A DNA stretch of 16,462 nucleotides from a virus (lineage: Duplodnaviria; Heunggongvirae; Uroviricota; Caudoviricetes), in the IMG/VR virus record IMGVR_UViG_3300000059_000156, positions 1 to 16,462 of that record; one strand, given 5' to 3'. The translations under genes and the position numbers were made by a program. The notes under the pieces are model-generated. The model saw nothing but the letters and a program-made list of their open reading frames with translations. It was not told where the DNA came from and did not search any database. Every line of letters begins with the position of its first letter. The first letter of the stretch is position 1. Positions 217 to 7,572 of the stretch are shown piece after piece.

Positions 217-1011
217 ATGACAACTCAAATTTCCGCACAAACTCTTTCCCCAATCTCTCATCAAAATACGCTTGTCATCACCACCGAATTGCTTGCACAA
301 CTGTATGGGACTGAACAAGTCCGAATTCGTCAAAACTACTCTCGTAATGAAGGGCGGTTTGTTGAAGGGAGACATTATTTTTTGGTGGAAGGCGATGAAC
401 TACGGGAGTTGAAACGCAAAGTATCTCAAAGCTACTCTGTGAAAATTGCCAAAAATGTACGTACTATCATTCTCTGGACAGAACGCGGCGCAGCTCGCCA
501 TGCCAAAATGCTGGAAACAGAACAGGCCTGGGAAGTTTTCGAAAAGCTGGAAGATTGTTATTTTAGCCAGCGTCCAGAGAGGCGGAGTACAACTACCGAT
601 GACCGTACTCCCTTACGTGATGCCGTTAATATGCTGGTCGGTAAGAAAGGCATGATGTATCCCGATGCCTACACCATGATTCATCAACGCTTCGCCGTCT
701 CTCACATAGAACAACTGTCACAGACGCAAATGTTAGAGGCGATTGAATACATCCACTGCCTGCTACTCGATGAAAATCAGCCAACCATTCCGGATTTTTC
801 TTTTATCACCACTATCAAAAATGGAAAAGTGACAAGGATGCGCCATGTTGCCAAAGGCGAACATCTGATGACCTTTGACGCTTTCAAAGAGATCGCTGAG
901 CGGGCAGGGTATCTGGTGATCCACAGCGACAATCTGCGAAGTATGACACTGGATAAATTGATGGTAATGGGGAAAAAGTCGGCTGTATCTGTTGCTGATT
1001 CAGCATTTTGA
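217..1011 (+). CDS. Phage antirepressor-like protein (ORF6N/Bro-N-type N-terminal domain)
   Basis: 264-aa ORF with SD-like GTGAGGT about 8 nt upstream of the ATG. The N-terminal stretch VITTELLAQLYGTEQVRIRQNYSRNEGRFVEGRHYFLVEGDELRELK fits my recollection of the ORF6N domain pattern of phage antirepressors. Family assignment is from memory, not a search. Confidence 0.7.
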   Translation: MTTQISAQTLSPISHQNTLVITTELLAQLYGTEQVRIRQNYSRNEGRFVEGRHYFLVEGDELRELKRKVSQSYSVKIAKNVRTIILWTERGAARHAKMLETEQAWEVFEKLEDCYFSQRPERRSTTTDDRTPLRDAVNMLVGKKGMMYPDAYTMIHQRFAVSHIEQLSQTQMLEAIEYIHCLLLDENQPTIPDFSFITTIKNGKVTRMRHVAKGEHLMTFDAFKEIAERAGYLVIHSDNLRSMTLDKLMVMGKKSAVSVADSAF

Positions 1012-1390
1012 CAGGTTGTTTGGGGTGGAAATACTCTATTTGCGCTTAGGATACTTGTTAGCTACTTCCACTTTTGTCACAAAGCGGACTATCTGGCTGA
1101 GCTGAGGGTCCGCAGTGAGTGAGGATCGAACATTTAAGCGTCGGTACTGATGACGGATTTGAGGTATTTAAAATATTACAGGAGCTAGTGTGGATGTGAC
1201 AGACATAAAAGTGGATGCAGTCAGAAAAGATATATGTATAGCAGGCTTCTTCGAGGACTAGATCAATCAATAAGATTTAGATAAAATTGCAGTGTTAAAT
1301 AAAAAGACTAGTAGTATTTAAACTTTAAGTGCGTTAGTAAAGTCGTGCAATTATATAAAACTAACGTTTTCTGAATGTTTGGAGAGTAAA

Positions 1391-2086
1391 ATGTTAGAAC
1401 CGCCAAAGAATTATAATGAAATGTTACCCATGCTCCATAAGGCAACTTTTATTACTACATTTATATTTTACCTATCATTGGTTATTTATGGCTACATACC
1501 ATTGGTTGGCATTAATACCAAGTACATTCCACCAATCAAAGACTACGAAGAGTTTATTAAATGGATATTAACATTCGGTATATTACCAATTGCATTCTCA
1601 ATTTTTTGGTCTGTGATTAGTGGAGTTTTAGATCTACATAATAACGTGGCAAAAATTCTTGGAATAAGAAAAGCATGGAATAATTACTTAATTGTTAAAC
1701 CATTGGCGCAAGTTGCAGGCGTTACAAGAAAATTAACTAGTGATGAATCCTCCAAAGTAATGAACAAACTGTATTACCCAGAAGTTAATGAGTTAAAAGA
1801 TAGACATTATGTTGAGCTCTTCTGGAATAAAGTTTATTACTTTTGGGTTTTCTTTGAACATACTGTGATTGCATTTATTACTGTTTTAGTAATAAGTTTT
1901 GCTAAATTAACCCATTTATTCTCTGTGACTGGTTCTTTAAAAATTCTTTGGTTGTGGGTTATTTTTATTGTTGTCTTTAATTTTCTTATTTTTATAGCAT
2001 CCGTTAAACCCAGAACTGAAGGCCAAGTCAGACAAATACCTGATGATAAGATAAAGGAATTTTTTAAAAATAACAGTATTTTTTAA
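1391..2086 (+). CDS. Hypothetical integral membrane protein (about 4 predicted TM helices), AT-rich island gene
   Basis: The ORF track starts at a TTG at 1379; I prefer the ATG at 1391, which has SD GGAGAG (1381-1386) 4 nt upstream. Four long hydrophobic stretches (e.g. FITTFIFYLSLVIYGYIPLVGI, ILTFGILPIAFSIFWSVISGVL, VYYFWVFFEHTVIAFITVLVISF, ILWLWVIFIVVFNFLIFIASV). Very AT-rich coding sequence. No family recognised. Confidence 0.6.
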   Translation: MLEPPKNYNEMLPMLHKATFITTFIFYLSLVIYGYIPLVGINTKYIPPIKDYEEFIKWILTFGILPIAFSIFWSVISGVLDLHNNVAKILGIRKAWNNYLIVKPLAQVAGVTRKLTSDESSKVMNKLYYPEVNELKDRHYVELFWNKVYYFWVFFEHTVIAFITVLVISFAKLTHLFSVTGSLKILWLWVIFIVVFNFLIFIASVKPRTEGQVRQIPDDKIKEFFKNNSIF

Positions 2087-2752
2087 ATGAGGCTAGTTTT
2101 GAATTACAAAATAAATGGAATGATTATACGTTCAGAAAATGCAGCAAAACCGCATACTATGCCATCTAACTATCTCTGTAACTATATTGAAAATTCTGTT
2201 AAAAATGGCATAGCCCTTGATTTCGGATGTGGAAAGCTTAGATATTCAGAACAACTAGTAAATAAATTTGAAGCTGTGACATTTTTAGATTCCAGAAAAC
2301 AGTTAGAAAGAGTGCAAATTATCAGAGGCGTACAAACCACAATTCCAGAGTATGTGGCTAATAATTATAAAAATGCTAATGTTGTCCCTTTTGAAAGTAT
2401 AGATAAAATAAAAGATAATTATGATTTCATACTTTGCGCAAACGTGCTTTCCGCAATTCCATGTAAATCAACAATTTACAAAATCATCAATGAGATTGGG
2501 AGATTATTAAAAAATGATGGTGAAGCAATTATTGTTAATCAATACAAAAGCTCATATTTCAAAAAGTATGAGACTGGAATTAAACATTTGCATGGATATA
2601 TATACCAAAACTCTCGCAATGCTTTCTATTATGGCTTATTGGATGAGAATATTGTAAGTAAAATTTGCTTAGATAACAATTTAGCAGTAATAAAGTCATG
2701 GAGCAAAGCTGGCAGTTCATATGTGGTTGTTGGTAAAAATAAACATAATTAG
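2087..2752 (+). CDS. Class I SAM-dependent methyltransferase-fold protein (substrate unknown; no DNA-methyltransferase catalytic motif seen)
   Basis: Start ATG overlaps the upstream stop (TAAATG at 2084-2089), indicating translational coupling. Canonical Rossmann-MTase motifs at canonical spacing: motif I ALDFGCGK (aa 43-50), post-I acidic residue in VTFLDSR (aa 64-70), motif II YDFILCANVL (aa 112-121), motif III LLKNDGEAIIV (aa 140-150). No (D/N)PP(Y/F/W) motif, so not a typical N6A/N4C DNA MTase. Confidence 0.6.
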   Translation: MRLVLNYKINGMIIRSENAAKPHTMPSNYLCNYIENSVKNGIALDFGCGKLRYSEQLVNKFEAVTFLDSRKQLERVQIIRGVQTTIPEYVANNYKNANVVPFESIDKIKDNYDFILCANVLSAIPCKSTIYKIINEIGRLLKNDGEAIIVNQYKSSYFKKYETGIKHLHGYIYQNSRNAFYYGLLDENIVSKICLDNNLAVIKSWSKAGSSYVVVGKNKHN

Positions 2753-3079
2753 TAAATTTAAAAATAATATTAGAGGGTGCCATTTTCTTATTACTTATTA
2801 ACTCACTGGGGTAGGGGCAACACGCCCCACCTCATCAAGTTACTGCAGGATTACAGACTTTTGTCAAAACGTTGGAAAAATTCAGTACAAACTTTTCCAT
2901 GTTTTTCCTAATCATAGATAATGATGCTCACTTATGTTAACAGCTTCTTGTACATAACGGTCTTCTTCAACAGGACAGCTATAAGTGAAGAAATAAAGTC
3001 GATAAACTATAAAGAGGCTCCAAATAAATATTATTCAATGAAGCCTGCTGTTTATTATTTGTTATTATTAAATCGCTAC

Positions 3080-3979
3080 TTATAATTCAACAATTTTTAG
3101 TATTATATCAATATTATTTAGCCTTGCAATCTCTGATGAATCGTTTGCAATTTTATCTTTTAAATTATCAATGTTAATCATATCTTCAGAGCTAATACAA
3201 ACCATATCACCTTGGTTAACTTTTGATTTGTTCACTATGGCTTGAATAACAGACAGATCGTCCATTACACCTCTCAGGAATTTAACCATGCTTTGATCCT
3301 TGAAATCAGATATCGATTTTGAACGTTGCTTACGTTGGATTGTTCCTTTTGTAATTATTTCGTTAATTTCTTTTAAACCGGCAAGCATATCAGATATGCT
3401 TCCTTCGCAACTCATCCTGTGTTTAATAGCATTGCGATTAATAACATTGAGTATTATTTCGAGTGAATCTCTATCATCCCATGGCGATAATAATGTATAA
3501 TCCTGATGGCGATGAATGGCATCAAGCATATCAAGGATCATATTTTCATCTGCTTTATCGCAAAGTTCATTTACAAAATAGCTGGGGTCGATTACTTTAC
3601 AATAACTTGGAACTGAGCATTTTGAGCTTTTACAAAACCCAAAAATATATAAAAAAGGGTATATGTCTTTTAGACTCTTTCCTGATTTATTTTCTTTTTC
3701 AAAGGCTGCGATTGTTTTTTTAATTTTTGCCGGGGTTGCTTTCGTTGTAACTTGAACTGCTATCATGTTTTTATTGTCAGCTAAATCAATGGCGGGAAAG
3801 TTAACTTTAATCTGATTCATGTTTTCCAGTTCCCCCATTTTCAGTGCGCGAAACATATAAATGGTCAATGACTCAATCATTCTTTCCATGTCATGAAAGC
3901 CAGTCTGTTTGCGTTGTTCGATATAAAGCTGAAGTAGCGCAATATCTTTCTGTAAGTTACTAATAAGTGGGGCAATCAT
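3080..3979 (-). CDS. SMEK-like domain protein (N-terminal SMEK-type domain, uncharacterised C-terminal region)
   Basis: 299-aa ORF with AAGGA SD 9 nt upstream of the ATG on the minus strand. The N-terminal segment NQIKVNFPAIDLADNKNMIAVQVTTKATPAKIKKTIAAF (aa 55-93) matches the hallmark I remember for SMEK domains (N-(F/A)-x-AIDL-x-D ... IA-x-QVT-(S/T) ... K-x-K-x-T-(I/L)-x-x-F). From memory only. Confidence 0.6.
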   Translation of the reverse strand: MIAPLISNLQKDIALLQLYIEQRKQTGFHDMERMIESLTIYMFRALKMGELENMNQIKVNFPAIDLADNKNMIAVQVTTKATPAKIKKTIAAFEKENKSGKSLKDIYPFLYIFGFCKSSKCSVPSYCKVIDPSYFVNELCDKADENMILDMLDAIHRHQDYTLLSPWDDRDSLEIILNVINRNAIKHRMSCEGSISDMLAGLKEINEIITKGTIQRKQRSKSISDFKDQSMVKFLRGVMDDLSVIQAIVNKSKVNQGDMVCISSEDMINIDNLKDKIANDSSEIARLNNIDIILKIVEL

Positions 3980-4512
3980 AGCTAATAATCCTTTTCAATT
4001 AAGTAGGGGATGTGTTTGAGCTTCTTTATTTGACTGTTAGTTTAATTTCTTGTTTTCATATTAACAAGCTCTACAATTTTATCAAGATTTCTCAAAAACT
4101 AATCCTCCGTGTAAATCCACTAACTATACTGAATTTATTCCGCTGTAAAACATGTCCGCTCATGGCTGTGAGTTCAACGGGTCGATGTAACGCCATCCAC
4201 TCAGTAAAATTGTGTAATTCCAGTGAGCAGGCGAATCTTCAGTATGCTCTAGTTTCTTACTCACACCTGCTTATGCTTTAACTATGTACAATGTAGATAA
4301 ACTCTCATGTTGATTTATCGCCATGATCACATTTCCGGAAGAAAAATTTTGTTTGTAACCTTGCTAGATGAGACAGTATAGATATCATTACATATGAAAC
4401 AGTACATTAGGGAACACTGAAGGCCGTAACTTTAAAAAATATAATTAATTGTACATAATTTTATAACCATCAAGATGGTGGCAATTATATAAGTAATAAT
4501 AAGGGTTGATTA

Positions 4513-5865
4513 ATGATTAAATTCACAGAAAAGGAAATACAAAATTACATATGGGAAAATAGGAACAATTTTCCCGAACTGCTTATTGAACCTGCAGGTC
4601 TTGAAGTACTTGAATTCAACGAAGATCTCTCTGATGTAACAGCACAACTGCTAATAAAAAACAGAATAAATAGTAAACTATCCAATCTTCACTCTAAGCT
4701 TTATGGACTGGAATTTATCGGCTGCGAAGTTCCTTTAGAACAAAATTCAAACTCAACAATTAGAGCCGATTTTTTGGCTATATTCTGTGATGATACTGGG
4801 CTTGCTGTCATAGAGCTTAAAAAAAGTGAACAAACTGAAAGGCAAGCATTCACTGAATTGTTAGCATATTCAAACCATATGACAACATTATTTCCATCCA
4901 TGACGAAAAATGACAGTGTGTATATTTTAATATCACCAATGGAAACCAGAATAGCACGTGATGCTGTCATCCAAAGTTTAATATTTGACAATAGGGATAT
5001 CATTACTTTAATTCCAACATTCTCTGATCCTCTTGATATTACATCTCTTAAACTTGAATTATGGATTCCAGACCAAACAGAGTTAGCGACTTTCTCAAAT
5101 ATTGCATTTAGAGAAGATAATTTTAGTGTCTGTAAATTATCCTGGGAGTATGACGCAGAGCGATGGGATGCAGCTAGAGGAGAAGAACTTTTACATTCAT
5201 TTGTTAGTCAATTTGATAACATTTCCTGCCTTGCAGCTCAGTATATGGAAGAATCTGGAGTTCATGGTTTTACTTATTGCTCTCAGTTATGGCCTGAATT
5301 ATCTCAGGCATTACCTTTTACGAATTCATTAGTACTAGTTGGCATGAATCCTTATGCTGTCGGGAGTGTCCAGCATTTATCCACAGAAGACGATAACTAT
5401 GATGATATTCCAGACCCAAATTCTTACACTCCTCACATATCTGAATTAATTGGTAAACTAGGTGAAGGAGAACTATATGAGGCTAATATTGATGTCCTAA
5501 GTGGTTTACATTGTACATGGATCTCTCAATTATATCGTATAGGTAAGCAGGTAATTGAACTCACCACTAGAAATACAGATGGGAAATACGTCCACGTTGA
5601 ATATGGCTTTATGAATTGGGAAATCTATCAAAGGTCTCTACTTGAGGATGTTTTCTGTGAAAACTTCGCTATTAGGTCTACAGGTTTAATACGACATCTC
5701 TATACTGACATTCTTAAATTAGATTATGATTTTTGTAAAAATAACGGATTGGAAAATCACCCTATTCATGGAGACATGCCATACTTAGGTGTCAATTTTC
5801 TTAAATCCCACCAGCACTTTAGAGAATTTATTTTGCGAATGTTCTATGCCGAAATAGATGCGTAG
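4513..5865 (+). CDS. Predicted PD-(D/E)xK-family nuclease-like protein with a large uncharacterised C-terminal region
   Basis: 450-aa ORF with SD AAGGG 8 nt upstream. N-terminal motif E72 ... RAD86FLAIFCDDTGLAVIE101LK103 has the D-x15-ExK spacing typical of restriction-endonuclease-fold active sites. The remaining ~340 aa are unrecognised. AT-rich. Confidence 0.65.
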   Translation: MIKFTEKEIQNYIWENRNNFPELLIEPAGLEVLEFNEDLSDVTAQLLIKNRINSKLSNLHSKLYGLEFIGCEVPLEQNSNSTIRADFLAIFCDDTGLAVIELKKSEQTERQAFTELLAYSNHMTTLFPSMTKNDSVYILISPMETRIARDAVIQSLIFDNRDIITLIPTFSDPLDITSLKLELWIPDQTELATFSNIAFREDNFSVCKLSWEYDAERWDAARGEELLHSFVSQFDNISCLAAQYMEESGVHGFTYCSQLWPELSQALPFTNSLVLVGMNPYAVGSVQHLSTEDDNYDDIPDPNSYTPHISELIGKLGEGELYEANIDVLSGLHCTWISQLYRIGKQVIELTTRNTDGKYVHVEYGFMNWEIYQRSLLEDVFCENFAIRSTGLIRHLYTDILKLDYDFCKNNGLENHPIHGDMPYLGVNFLKSHQHFREFILRMFYAEIDA

Positions 5866-6422
5866 TGAGATTTTTTGGTTTATCTCTGCTGGAGAAAATT
5901 CATGGGTGAGGAAAGAGATAGATAATATTGAAAATAAAATCTTCAAAAGATGTGGAAATAAAGACATGATCTAAAATTTTTTGGCATTCATTTCATATGA
6001 AACAGCCCTTCTAAAAACTATACAGGCATGGATGATATTTTCTTATGATTTTTTAGTTGTAATTTATCTTTACTATATAATATATGGGGGGATTGTCGCC
6101 AGCTATTCACCGACTATCAAATATCAATAACTCCTGGCAGTTCTGTAAGGTATAGACATACAAATCGGCCTGAAGATTACGGATAGTTTCTTAAGGTCCG
6201 TTCCTGGCACAAAGTGGACTGTCAAATGAAATTCGGCTCCACGCCATAGATGTGTCAGCTCATATCTTATCTAATACACACAATAACTTTCTCATTCTTG
6301 GAGAATTATTTTTTTAAGGGTAGGTGTTGACGTTAGAGCAAAAGAATGGTGATTTTTTTGATGTGTATTACGTTGGAACTGATGGGAATAACTATCTGTT
6401 TTCAACGCACTGCTAATTTATC

Positions 6423-6444
6423 AAGGCCCTTTGATCAGGGCCTT
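6423..6444 (-). terminator. Perfect 8-bp hairpin just downstream of the minus-strand ImmA operon; possible terminator or protein-binding palindrome
   Basis: AAGGCCCT (6423-6430), loop TTGATC, AGGGCCTT (6437-6444), ~25 nt beyond the stop of the 6469-7074 gene on the minus strand. No clean U-tract on either strand, so terminator function is uncertain. Confidence 0.3.
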
Positions 6445-6468
6445 CGAAAGACTGTTGGACCGAGAGAG

Positions 6469-7074
6469 TTACTTGCGTTTAAAAAGGTATTTTGTCACGA
6501 CCAGCACGAGGCCGAATACCTCTGTCAAAGTACCGCCCATGTACAACTGGAGCGTTAAGTCTTTAAATACAAGCCATTCAGCACCAGTGGCAAAAAATAC
6601 ACCATTCATTATCAAAAGCTGGCAAGCAAGGATAATAAGGAACCATTTGCCATAGCGTTTTTTTAGATCGATTTCAGCTTCAAAATCTTTGTTGTTGAGT
6701 TGTTTGCGCTCATGCTCAGTATCAAGTGAATTCACCTGTTTCACAGATGTGAACTCGGTCAAGATTTTACTCTCAGTACGGGTGACTTGTTGAGAGGGGG
6801 TAGGAATTGGAATTCTTTTGATTGACGCAGCTACAGCCATTTTGCGAGCTTCGGCAGCTCTTTTTCTGGCTATTCCGTGAATACGGGCAGACGGTTTTTT
6901 TGGAGCGTGCGAAACCTTTGGCTGAGGTGAAGTTTCGTCAGGAGACTGAACCGGAGTTTCATCGTCCTCCGGCTCAACCTCTTCTGCTAACTGACGGTGT
7001 AGGTTGAGGGAATCCTTCAGTCGGCGTGCAACTTCCTGTTTGAAACGGCTGTTAAAATCGTCATCCGATGGCAT
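6469..7074 (-). CDS. Hypothetical membrane protein: acidic/Pro-rich N-terminal region, basic middle, two C-terminal TM helices
   Basis: 201-aa ORF starting 9 nt after the stop of the ImmA-like gene (operon). C-terminal hydrophobic segments WFLIILACQLLIMNGVFFATG and LTEVFGLVLVVTKYLF; N-terminus EEVEPEDDETPVQSPDETSPQP looks low-complexity/disordered. Confidence 0.7.
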   Translation of the reverse strand: MPSDDDFNSRFKQEVARRLKDSLNLHRQLAEEVEPEDDETPVQSPDETSPQPKVSHAPKKPSARIHGIARKRAAEARKMAVAASIKRIPIPTPSQQVTRTESKILTEFTSVKQVNSLDTEHERKQLNNKDFEAEIDLKKRYGKWFLIILACQLLIMNGVFFATGAEWLVFKDLTLQLYMGGTLTEVFGLVLVVTKYLFKRK

Positions 7075-7083
7075 TCTAAAGCG

Positions 7084-7572
7084 TTACCCCAACCTCAAGT
7101 TCTTTAAACGATAAGTCATCGCATCGTCAGATACGCCAAAATAATGCGCCATTATATAACTTGGTTGGCCGTCAGCGTGCAGTTTTCTGACCTCATCAAC
7201 CGGCATCAGAAGTTCTGCTGCGAACTTGTTCGCAAAAATTTCATCAGGATGCGTTCCGGCGCTTGCGGTTTCGCCACGTAAATCAACGTACTCATATTCA
7301 TCACTATGCGATGCTTGCCGGGCGATGTAATGCCCCAACTCATGCCCACATGAAAAACGTTGACGAACTTTGTTGTCATCACTGTTTAGAAAGATCGCTG
7401 GATCTTGATCTTTTTGTTTAATCAGTGCGCCAGAAACTTTCCCAGGAAGATCGGTAATAAAAACATCTAATCCCATGTCGTGAGCAATTTTCGCTGGATC
7501 AACAGGGAAACCACGCCCGCACCAGAACGTGTCCAGCACTCGCCGGGCGTGCTCTCTTGGGTTGGTAGCCAT
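7084..7572 (-). CDS. ImmA/IrrE-family zinc metallopeptidase-like protein
   Basis: 162-aa ORF with strong SD (GGAGGAG) upstream of the ATG on the minus strand. HEXXH zinc-binding motif in SCGHELGHYIA; size and motif context are typical of ImmA/IrrE (COG2856-type) peptidases of mobile elements. Confidence 0.8.
   Translation of the reverse strand: MATNPREHARRVLDTFWCGRGFPVDPAKIAHDMGLDVFITDLPGKVSGALIKQKDQDPAIFLNSDDNKVRQRFSCGHELGHYIARQASHSDEYEYVDLRGETASAGTHPDEIFANKFAAELLMPVDEVRKLHADGQPSYIMAHYFGVSDDAMTYRLKNLRLG

Follow-up and report, generated by a model that had tools for sequence, protein, structure and literature searches.

A ymfE–ymfD-like membrane protein and methyltransferase gene pair in a lambdoid prophage, a candidate phage-conflict module

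The TehA/TehB operon encodes a membrane protein together with a class I methyltransferase (MTase). In the Kiwa system, a small protein with four transmembrane (TM) helices and a cytoplasmic partner (KwaA/KwaB) are encoded in a tight operon found in defence islands and prophages, a layout shared by ymfED, the ymfE–ymfD gene pair of Escherichia coli. To our knowledge, a methyltransferase partner does not occur in any characterised system of Kiwa-type architecture, nor does any characterised defence system combine a membrane partner with a methyltransferase of non-DNA type. The papers found on ymfD, ymfE, b1137 and b1138 assign no function to either gene: they list deletions, tabulate expression or, in one case, report a negative m6A test, and none describes a phage-protection assay of the pair. 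A K-12 strain without ymfD grew normally, and the gene showed no specific part in mRNA m6A (PMC12096079).

Here, we describe a related pair in a 16,462-nt stretch of viral DNA (IMG/VR record IMGVR_UViG_3300000059_000156), referred to as the window. BLASTP matched the product of its first gene to K-12 YmfE (60% identity over 230 residues, E 4e-105) and that of the second to K-12 YmfD (68% identity, 216/221 residues, E 2e-110). Judged by these alignments, the window pair is almost certainly a copy of ymfE–ymfD, first annotated in the cryptic prophage e14 of E. coli K-12. The first-pass annotation of this DNA had found no named counterpart for the pairing, and the e14 genes supply the names. Three alleles of the pair occur in E. 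coli, and that of the window differs from the e14 allele.

The two genes and their products

The features of the locus that are referred to below are as follows:

1232–1390, plus strand: upstream non-coding stretch travelling with the pair; similarity to an 84%-identical E. coli cassette begins at 1232
1391–2086, plus strand: ymfE-like gene, encoding a 231-aa inner-membrane protein with 4 TM helices
2084–2101, plus strand: gene junction, with TAA at 2084–2086, ATG at 2087–2089, the Shine–Dalgarno (SD)-like GAGG at 2090–2093 and TTG at 2099
2087–2752, plus strand: ymfD-like gene, encoding a 221-aa class I SAM-dependent methyltransferase (217 aa if started at TTG 2099)
2799–2842, no strand assigned: GC-rich hairpin between the convergent ymfD-like and SMEK genes, from an RNA fold of 2753–2860
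3080–3979, minus strand: gene for a 299-aa SMEK-domain (Mrr-like nuclease) protein (Pfam SMEK_N, E 3e-23)

The first-pass annotation had proposed a two-gene module, and this proposal stands: the open reading frames at 1391–2086 and 2087–2752 lie on the same strand, and their homologues are under purifying selection, with dN/dS values of 0.13 and 0.27 for the two genes against an 86%-identical E. coli variant. Both are thus real genes rather than chance reading frames. The junction required a different reading, as the TAAATG string had been described as an overlap of stop and start, and TAA merely abuts ATG. The family consensus of the MTase N-terminus aligns with residue 5, which corresponds to TTG 2099, and a sister allele carries ACG where the window has ATG 2087; the true start of the ymfD-like gene is probably the family-conserved TTG. 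Across all homologous loci, the junctions range from -23 to +15 nt, mostly with an SD-like motif. Of the obligate co-expression that had been proposed, co-expression from an operon is well supported, but obligate translational coupling is conjectural.

The upstream stretch presumably holds the promoter. Consensus promoter and terminator scans of the window returned sites no more often than in shuffled sequence. Downstream of the pair, the folded region reached -25.3 kcal/mol (z -2.6), and its hairpin is a possible bidirectional terminator; it has no T-run, and the terminator scan found no terminator there. A 10-bp inverted repeat, AGCAGGCTTC at 1240 with its complement at 3040, brackets the pair and was treated as a chance occurrence because it is missing from every other locus.

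A Kyte-Doolittle profile of the ymfE-like protein displays four hydrophobic segments, as in the initial 4-TM call, and its AlphaFold2 model (pLDDT 86.5) places helices at residues 8–32, 53–80, 138–174 and 183–214. The N-terminus, a central helical domain (approximately residues 81–137) and the C-terminal tail are predicted to lie on the cytoplasmic side; the central domain and the tail, both assigned to the cytoplasm by topology prediction, are rich in lysine and arginine. The conserved polar residues of YmfE (H83, R93, D97, Y129, D137, H139 and E156) form a cluster on the predicted cytoplasmic face. Profile searches matched the protein to no Pfam or NCBIfam family, a Pfam scan of ten distant homologues returned only sub-threshold noise, and neither a sequence search of solved structures nor a search for fold relatives of the predicted structure gave a match. 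As modelled, YmfE-like proteins are 4-TM proteins of unclassified fold. A search of PADLOC-DB v2 at E values up to 0.1 likewise found no match. WP_001773972.1 (249 aa), listed by DefensePredictor as a 'predicted novel defense gene', was suspected to be a YmfE relative on length alone; it is not the same gene as the 249-aa YmfE-like locus, since that locus has no match in E. coli genomes.

The ymfD-like protein exceeds the curated threshold of a class I methyltransferase profile and adopts a seven-stranded fold. Of the SAM-binding motifs claimed at first reading, motif I, (D/E)xGxGxG, is present as DFGCGK at residues 45–50, and the acidic residue at the end of strand 2 is D68; both are at least 95% conserved in 51 homologues across phyla. 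The same reading had judged that the enzyme did not look like part of a standard restriction-modification system, and this view was upheld: the (D/N)PP(Y/F) motif of DNA amino-methyltransferases is absent from the entire 221-aa sequence, neither a target-recognition domain nor structural similarity to DNA methyltransferases was found, and the fold neighbours are small-molecule and tRNA methyltransferases. Sequence and model together indicate a class I SAM methyltransferase that is intact and belongs structurally with the small-molecule/tRNA enzymes. Solved structures matched it in sequence only through the generic SAM-binding core, UbiG being a weak match (E about 0.007), and UbiG- and PmtA-type lipid methyltransferases were among its weak matches. 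In PADLOC-DB v2, a weak generic match to mad2 (E 2e-4) was the only one.

The best specific family match of the enzyme is TehB (Pfam, 24.2 bits against a cut-off of 20.4), a match that covers only the SAM-binding core, positions 28–135 of 193, and the top NCBIfam matches, two TehB equivalogs, reached 29 bits (cut-off 218) and 26 bits (cut-off 303). This family match raises the alternative that the pair is a detoxification or resistance module of TehA/TehB type carried as mobile accessory cargo, in which the enzyme would methylate a toxic small molecule, such as a chalcogen oxyanion, a thiol, a halide or a heterocyclic toxin, and the membrane protein would take up, export or sense it. Toxin- and metabolite-modifying enzymes among the fold neighbours (Rv0560c, TmtA, XrdM, a halide methyltransferase and NmbA) and the occurrence of the pair in an integron cassette array agree with such a role. 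The 10-TM TehA is unrelated to YmfE, and the partner is not of TehA type. We regard this alternative as rather unlikely.

Pairing, distribution and gene neighbourhood

To analyse co-occurrence, the two families were surveyed in genome, viral and metagenome loci, and their association was complete. Starting from the methyltransferase, a YmfE homologue was adjacent on the same strand in 28/28 informative genome loci, with the order swapped in 4, and the pair was present in 27/27 informative viral contigs. Starting from the membrane protein, a methyltransferase was adjacent in all 17 informative metagenome loci (17/17). Both genes were found in 433 of the 434 E. coli genomes with a match. The membrane partner, postulated from a single locus by the first-pass annotation, thereby proves obligatory, being adjacent in every informative locus. 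A 471-aa reading frame of Bradyrhizobium (L035, L036) that matches both profiles was first read as a gene fusion; six-frame translation identified it as a decayed pseudogene, because the N-terminal motif contains a stop and the membrane protein has its C-terminal half encoded in another frame.

The pair ranges from enterobacteria as far as Planctomycetota, Acidobacteriota and Actinomycetota, with either gene first, and no further neighbour family is common to its loci. The homologues form about 240 clusters at 50% identity. In the window it occupies a low-GC island in the nin/moron region of a lambdoid prophage. Elsewhere it resides in prophages, an integrative and conjugative element (ICE), the cassette array of the Vibrio cholerae superintegron and chromosomal islands; in Yersinia it lies between two integrases at the end of a P2/186-like prophage. 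Viral contigs yielded no match below 63% identity, and outside enterobacteria the pair was not found in phages. On this comparative evidence, the pair is a self-contained unit that moves between genomes.

The distribution also bears on a housekeeping role in lipid or quinone methylation, of UbiG/UbiE type, as given by some automatic annotations: JGI labels several homologues '2-polyprenyl-...-benzoquinol methylase', and the weak UbiG matches point in the same direction. Such a role is barely credible. Only 434 of 5426 complete E. coli genomes (8%) carry the pair, a sporadic distribution that effectively refutes it; the pair sits in a low-GC island, its neighbours differ between loci, and the matches are restricted to the generic SAM-binding core. 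Neither a housekeeping pathway nor a conserved chromosomal context emerged for the pair, and its two genes keep together; the outcomes by which the first-pass annotation would have counted its proposal refuted did not arise.

Next to the pair, the convergent SMEK gene corrects the first-pass statement that no restriction endonuclease is adjacent, as its product has an Mrr-like nuclease domain at the N-terminus (PDB 26bh, the Mrr domain of an Mrr-APAZ pAgo partner, E 7e-9). A 450-aa reading frame at 4513–5865 also gave weak REase-like matches. The SMEK protein is 83% identical to WP_087896215.1, which, according to PMC13092281, was cloned alone, without ymfED-like genes, and validated as the single-gene defence system DS-27. 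The SMEK gene and the pair move together in three contexts, and SMEK is missing from most others.

These observations allow a three-gene system to be considered, in which the methyltransferase and its partner would provide self-protection or regulation for the nuclease in a restriction-modification-like manner. The block 1232–4160 moves whole between a lambdoid nin region, a Qin-like prophage and a Klebsiella ICE, divergence and dN/dS are alike for all three genes, and the SMEK N-terminal domain is of Mrr type. We consider this arrangement very unlikely: the DS-27 protein alone protects against phage, albeit in an MG1655 host that does carry e14 ymfED; more than 20 other contexts, among them e14, have the pair but no SMEK gene; and the methyltransferase is not of the DNA type. 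Being convergent, the SMEK gene is not in an operon with the pair, and no nuclease with the features of a cognate, methyltransferase-dependent partner is present, given its orientation, the activity of its homologue alone and its absence from most loci. Since that homologue works alone as DS-27, the SMEK gene was treated as a separate system, one that by gene comparison co-travels with the pair but stands outside it. The low-GC island of the prophage comprises a few separate conflict genes stacked together rather than a single system.

In raw counts, a partial survey of 26 independent contexts located a defence gene within approximately 3.5 kb of the pair in about 10; about 16 had no recognised defence neighbour. 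The neighbours were distributed as follows:

L025: Lamassu LmuACB, directly adjacent to the pair
L019: Olokun OloAB, directly adjacent to the pair
L005: retron I-C RT-Toprim gene, within approximately 3.5 kb
L014: Lamassu, near the pair
L015: type II C5 DNA methyltransferase, near the pair
L020 and L022: Hachiman, near the pair
L034: type III Mod+Res, with its stop overlapping the MTase start
e14: Lit, beside the pair
Window, L002 and a Klebsiella ICE: DS-27-like SMEK gene, beside the pair

Mobile cargo of other kinds could show such an association with defence genes too. Neither protein of the pair has its accession among the DefensePredictor matches in the accessible part of the PMC13092281 supplements, and the pair was not included in a Vibrio integron defence screen or a metagenomic defence screen.

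Proposed function of the pair

We hypothesize that YmfE and YmfD form a complex on the cytoplasmic face of the inner membrane, where the polar cluster, cytoplasmic domain and tail of YmfE would dock YmfD or present a substrate to it. YmfD could then methylate a membrane-proximal target, with YmfE, a lipid, a small molecule or a component of an incoming phage as candidates. A membrane-docked enzyme complex is, in our judgement, likely. The module may serve inter-genome conflict, as phage defence or exclusion; this conflict or defence role is plausible, with the balance tipped slightly against it. The explanation as a whole, comprising ymfED identity, docked complex and conflict role, is the reading we prefer, though it is about evenly poised between right and wrong.

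Because it is always paired, mobile and often found beside known anti-phage systems, the pair was considered a candidate phage-conflict module; ymfED is a reasonable, though unproven, candidate for a new one. The standard permissive host of coliphages, MG1655, has ymfED in its e14 prophage, so the e14 allele either gives no broad laboratory protection or is silent.

As one option, YmfE may be a membrane sensor or effector whose state is set by YmfD-dependent methylation. That ymfED would represent a new type of two-gene anti-phage or conflict system, with a 4-TM sensor/effector set by a small-molecule-type SAM methyltransferase, is a tentative and rather doubtful proposition. It could take two forms. 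Methylation might keep YmfE silent, with release triggered by infection or by a phage enzyme that degrades SAM and so depletes it; alternatively, the YmfE–YmfD complex might methylate an incoming phage component at the membrane.

Alternatively, a docked methyltransferase could act on the envelope in the service of lysogenic conversion or superinfection exclusion, by methylating a lipid of the inner leaflet or a lipid-linked precursor, with the changed envelope altering phage adsorption, DNA entry or another trait. The YmfE cluster of His, Asp, Glu, Arg and Tyr residues at the inner-leaflet boundary resembles a ligand-binding or active site more than a passive anchor, the enterobacterial pair stands at classic moron/conversion positions (int/att in e14 and Yersinia, the nin region in the window), and the weak matches include UbiG- and PmtA-type lipid methyltransferases. 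However, homology to lipid enzymes is lacking, the association with phages does not extend beyond enterobacteria, and the family is found in diderm as well as monoderm phyla, whose envelopes differ greatly, so that any envelope target would have to be universal. We hold an envelope role to be unlikely.

Small multi-TM proteins are common toxins, and a tight two-gene operon on mobile elements is also what a toxin-antitoxin or addiction module would present, with the membrane protein as a pore toxin and the methyltransferase as its antidote, or with the roles exchanged, so as to stabilise the mobile element. Toxin-antitoxin loci adjoin the pair in the Vibrio integron, and hokD adjoins it in E. 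coli. Such a module is nevertheless, on indirect evidence, highly improbable. In cryptic prophages either gene is found disrupted with its partner intact (membrane gene IS-interrupted in L065 and L074 and truncated in L050; MTase frameshifted in L091), strong conservation across phyla, with invariant residues of the kind seen in enzymes, applies to both proteins, and K-12 cells deleted for ymfD are viable and grow normally (PMC12096079).

The ymfE and ymfD genes are among the uncharacterised 'y-genes' of K-12, and their obligate pairing, purifying selection and defence neighbours turn them into a defined, testable module. Should the docked complex serve defence or exclusion, bacterial immunity would gain a new enzymatic principle, that of a methyltransferase coupled to the membrane and acting off DNA, and an easily manipulated K-12 gene pair would acquire a function. 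Should it be detoxifying or envelope-modifying, it would still define a new membrane-protein family without a Pfam model.

Comparison with known systems

DS-27, whose protein is 83% identical to the window SMEK gene product, is independently functional according to PMC13092281 and falls outside the two-gene finding. Type II and III restriction-modification systems and orphan DNA methyltransferases resemble the window in having a SAM-dependent methyltransferase on a prophage with a nuclease gene nearby. They differ in that the YmfD-like enzyme has neither the (D/N)PP(Y/F) motif nor a target-recognition domain, and that the nuclease gene is convergent and absent from most loci. Kiwa, close in layout, is separate in sequence, as ymfED has no similarity to KwaA/KwaB or to any other PADLOC model. 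Like the pair, TehA/TehB is an operon of an integral membrane protein and a class I SAM methyltransferase, but it is a fixed chromosomal locus, in contrast to the sporadic and mobile ymfED, and the likeness is best taken as an analogy of architecture only.

The closest counterpart is the e14 pair itself, YmfE (b1138) and YmfD (b1137), which shares with the window full-length homology, the order of membrane protein and then methyltransferase, and a stop codon abutting the start. Both pairs are prophage cargo beside a defence gene, although the positions differ: the e14 pair lies at the att/int end beside lit, and the window pair in the nin/moron region beside the SMEK/DS-27-like gene.

Pairing of the membrane-protein and methyltransferase genes

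The two genes constitute an obligately paired, mobile and conserved operon. Both open reading frames of the first-pass annotation are present, followed by a hairpin and a convergent neighbour:

1391-2086, + strand, ymfE-like membrane protein with four transmembrane segments
2087-2752, + strand, ymfD-like SAM methyltransferase
2799-2842, GC-rich hairpin separating the ymfD-like gene from the convergent SMEK gene (fold z-score -2.6)
3080-3979, - strand, SMEK-domain protein, convergent to the pair

The stop and start codons, initially read as overlapping, were found to abut (TAA 2084-2086, ATG 2087-2089). The family-conserved N-terminus of the methyltransferase aligns with a TTG at 2099, with GAGG just before it, and a sister E. 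coli allele has ACG in place of the methyltransferase ATG. Across homologous loci, the two genes overlap by as much as 23 nt or are spaced by up to 15 nt. Of the obligate co-expression proposed earlier, co-transcription and close coupling are well supported, while obligate translational coupling is not. The hairpin, which has no T-run, could serve as a bidirectional terminator.

When co-occurrence of the two families was checked, the partner was adjacent in every informative locus. A search with the methyltransferase only, using one genome per species, recovered 30 loci in Gammaproteobacteria, Planctomycetota, Acidobacteriota, Gemmatimonadota, Dormiibacterota, Actinomycetota and Bradyrhizobium. 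With a membrane-protein profile, a co-oriented homologue was found directly adjacent at each of the 28 loci that have a whole methyltransferase gene and available flanking sequence, the gene order being reversed in four. The pair was present in 27 of 27 informative viral-contig loci, and the reciprocal search from the membrane protein in metagenomes yielded a methyltransferase partner in 17 of 17. Both genes are under purifying selection (dN/dS 0.13 and 0.27). A toxin-antitoxin pair is one rival reading of this two-gene arrangement. So sporadic a distribution effectively rules out a housekeeping role in quinone or lipid methylation.

Three contigs of 2.4-3 kb, labelled Streptomyces sp., Candidatus Scatousia and uncultured Haemophilus, carry a pair 82-89% identical to that of the window; contamination, or enterobacterial prophage DNA assigned to the wrong bin, seems likelier than a true occurrence in those taxa.

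Features of the two proteins

The operon encodes a novel four-transmembrane protein and an intact SAM methyltransferase of non-DNA type. Four hydrophobic segments were recovered by hydropathy in the membrane protein, in agreement with a confident AlphaFold2 model (pLDDT 86.5, pTM 0.80) that contains long helices at residues 8-32, 53-80, 138-174 and 183-214 and a helical domain at 82-133. Judged by charge bias, the central domain (10 K/R versus 6 D/E) and the C-tail are predicted to be cytoplasmic. Residues invariant across the family (Y8, H83, R93, D97, Y129, D137, H139, W152 and E156) lie together on the cytoplasmic side and within the inner-leaflet portion of TM3, a pattern that looks more like a binding or catalytic site than a plain anchor. 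An exhaustive profile search gave about 237 clusters at 50% identity, whose members are all stand-alone proteins of roughly 225-250 residues.

In the methyltransferase, the SAM-binding motifs were verified: motifs I (DFGCGK), II and III are all there, and D68 follows strand 2. The (D/N)PP(Y/F) motif is indeed absent. The model adopts a class I methyltransferase fold (pLDDT 89.8), and the SAM-binding residues of the family are unchanged across phyla. The protein exceeds the Pfam thresholds for both Methyltransf_11 and TehB, and a TehAB-like detoxification module is a further rival explanation. We propose that the two proteins may form a membrane-docked enzyme complex.

Prophage setting and the SMEK neighbour

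The window belongs to a lambdoid prophage of E. coli: five complete genomes contain chromosomal prophage stretches 98-99% identical to it, and induced E. coli phages match its right half. Beyond the pair and its neighbour, the following features were mapped:

80-166, + strand, C4 antisense RNA (Rfam RF01695, 77.7 bits)
217-1011, + strand, ORF6N-domain antirepressor-like gene, just downstream of the C4 antisense RNA
about 1000-6500, low-GC island (30-37% GC versus 45-56% on either side), separating the early region from the Q region
4513-5865, + strand, 450-aa open reading frame in the island, matching phrog_30092
6469-7074, - strand, 201-aa protein of unassigned function (phrog_5346), after the M78 peptidase gene
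7084-7572, - strand, ImmA/IrrE M78 peptidase (PADLOC capP, E 2e-25)
right of the island, Q antiterminator, lysis and terminase genes

The C4 RNA and ORF6N gene resemble the P1/P7 immI (c4-ant) immunity module, here inside a lambdoid prophage. Just 5 of the 5426 complete E. coli genomes have the low-GC island in full. At least three distinct units of cargo seem to be stacked within it: the ymfED-like pair at its left end, the SMEK gene and the 450-aa frame. The latter has only weak restriction-enzyme-like matches (Pfam HSDR_N, E 0.003; PADLOC REase_II, E 0.002), and no solved structure is related to it; it may be another stand-alone defence nuclease. The M78 peptidase and 201-aa genes may form a regulatory protease module. 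One window gene has homologues at two other loci (L005/L006, cluster 2), which hold a 201-aa gene and an M78-peptidase gene side by side, some 4 kb away from ymfED-like genes.

The first-pass annotation saw no restriction endonuclease beside the pair, but the adjoining convergent gene encodes a nuclease. The N-terminal domain of the SMEK protein matches the Mrr nuclease domain of the Mrr-APAZ partner of a prokaryotic Argonaute (PDB 26bh, E 7e-9), and one paper names SMEK as a nuclease domain found in short Argonaute systems (PMC10810196); the C-terminal ~180 residues of the protein have no assignment. The protein is 83% identical to WP_087896215.1, which was cloned alone and listed as validated system DS-27 in the DefensePredictor study (PMC13092281). 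The pair and SMEK travel together as a block between the lambdoid prophage of the window, a prophage of Qin-like type and a Klebsiella ICE, and a three-gene system that includes SMEK is another of the rival readings. Since the pair occurs without SMEK in e14 (the K-12 cryptic prophage, where it sits beside lit), Yersinia, Vibrio, Pseudomonas and all distant taxa, we regard SMEK as a system in its own right, carried along with one sub-lineage of the pair. A comparison of neighbours found no third gene shared across homologous loci.

Within cryptic prophages and islands, genes of the block degenerate. At two loci (L065, L074) an insertion of about 1.1-1.2 kb interrupts the membrane gene, which is truncated at L050 and a pseudogene in two Bradyrhizobium strains (L035/L036); the SMEK gene is frameshifted at L045 and the methyltransferase at L091.

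Defence neighbours and relation to ymfE and ymfD

In a partial survey, the pair was frequently found in defence islands and at prophage moron sites; a recognised defence system lay within about 3.5 kb in about 10 of 26 independent contexts, a proportion with no background rate for comparison. The pair is directly preceded by a complete Lamassu system in Pseudomonas simiae and by Olokun in Microbulbifer, while Hachiman neighbours it in Amphritea and another Pseudomonas. An Acidimicrobiia genome carries a type III Mod-Res pair whose stop overlaps the methyltransferase start, and a retron I-C reverse transcriptase lies nearby at one locus. Two further Pseudomonas strains (L014, L015) hold the pair at one chromosomal locus with shared downstream genes and, within about 3 kb upstream, differing defence systems (Lamassu or a type II cytosine methyltransferase), so the pair may mark the edge of a variable defence hotspot. 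Other settings include the Vibrio cholerae superintegron, a P2/186-like prophage end between two integrases, and small insertions between housekeeping genes.

We hypothesize that the module could serve phage defence or exclusion; an envelope-modifying conversion module is a rival reading. Against defence, e14-bearing K-12 is permissive as a laboratory host, and the pair is absent from PADLOC models. It is not among the DefensePredictor tables, within the portions searched, and a K-12 ymfD knockout had no growth phenotype (PMC12096079).

The pairing, initially taken as undescribed, is homologous to ymfE (b1138) and ymfD (b1137) of e14 (60% and 68% protein identity, respectively), with the same gene order and abutting junction; a close homologue already carries the name ymfD in one source. 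Three E. coli alleles were distinguished: that of the window (5 complete genomes), a variant about 86% identical (146) and the e14 type (283, mostly K-12 derivatives), together 434 of 5426 genomes, with both genes in 433. The strict cross-phylum pairing, the unassigned fold and family of the membrane partner and the defence-island association were not found in the searchable literature, and they make the pair a reasonable candidate for experiment in a very tractable host, the more interesting if the defence reading is true. The genes add a new member to a family that is named though uncharacterised, so the pairing does not count as undescribed.
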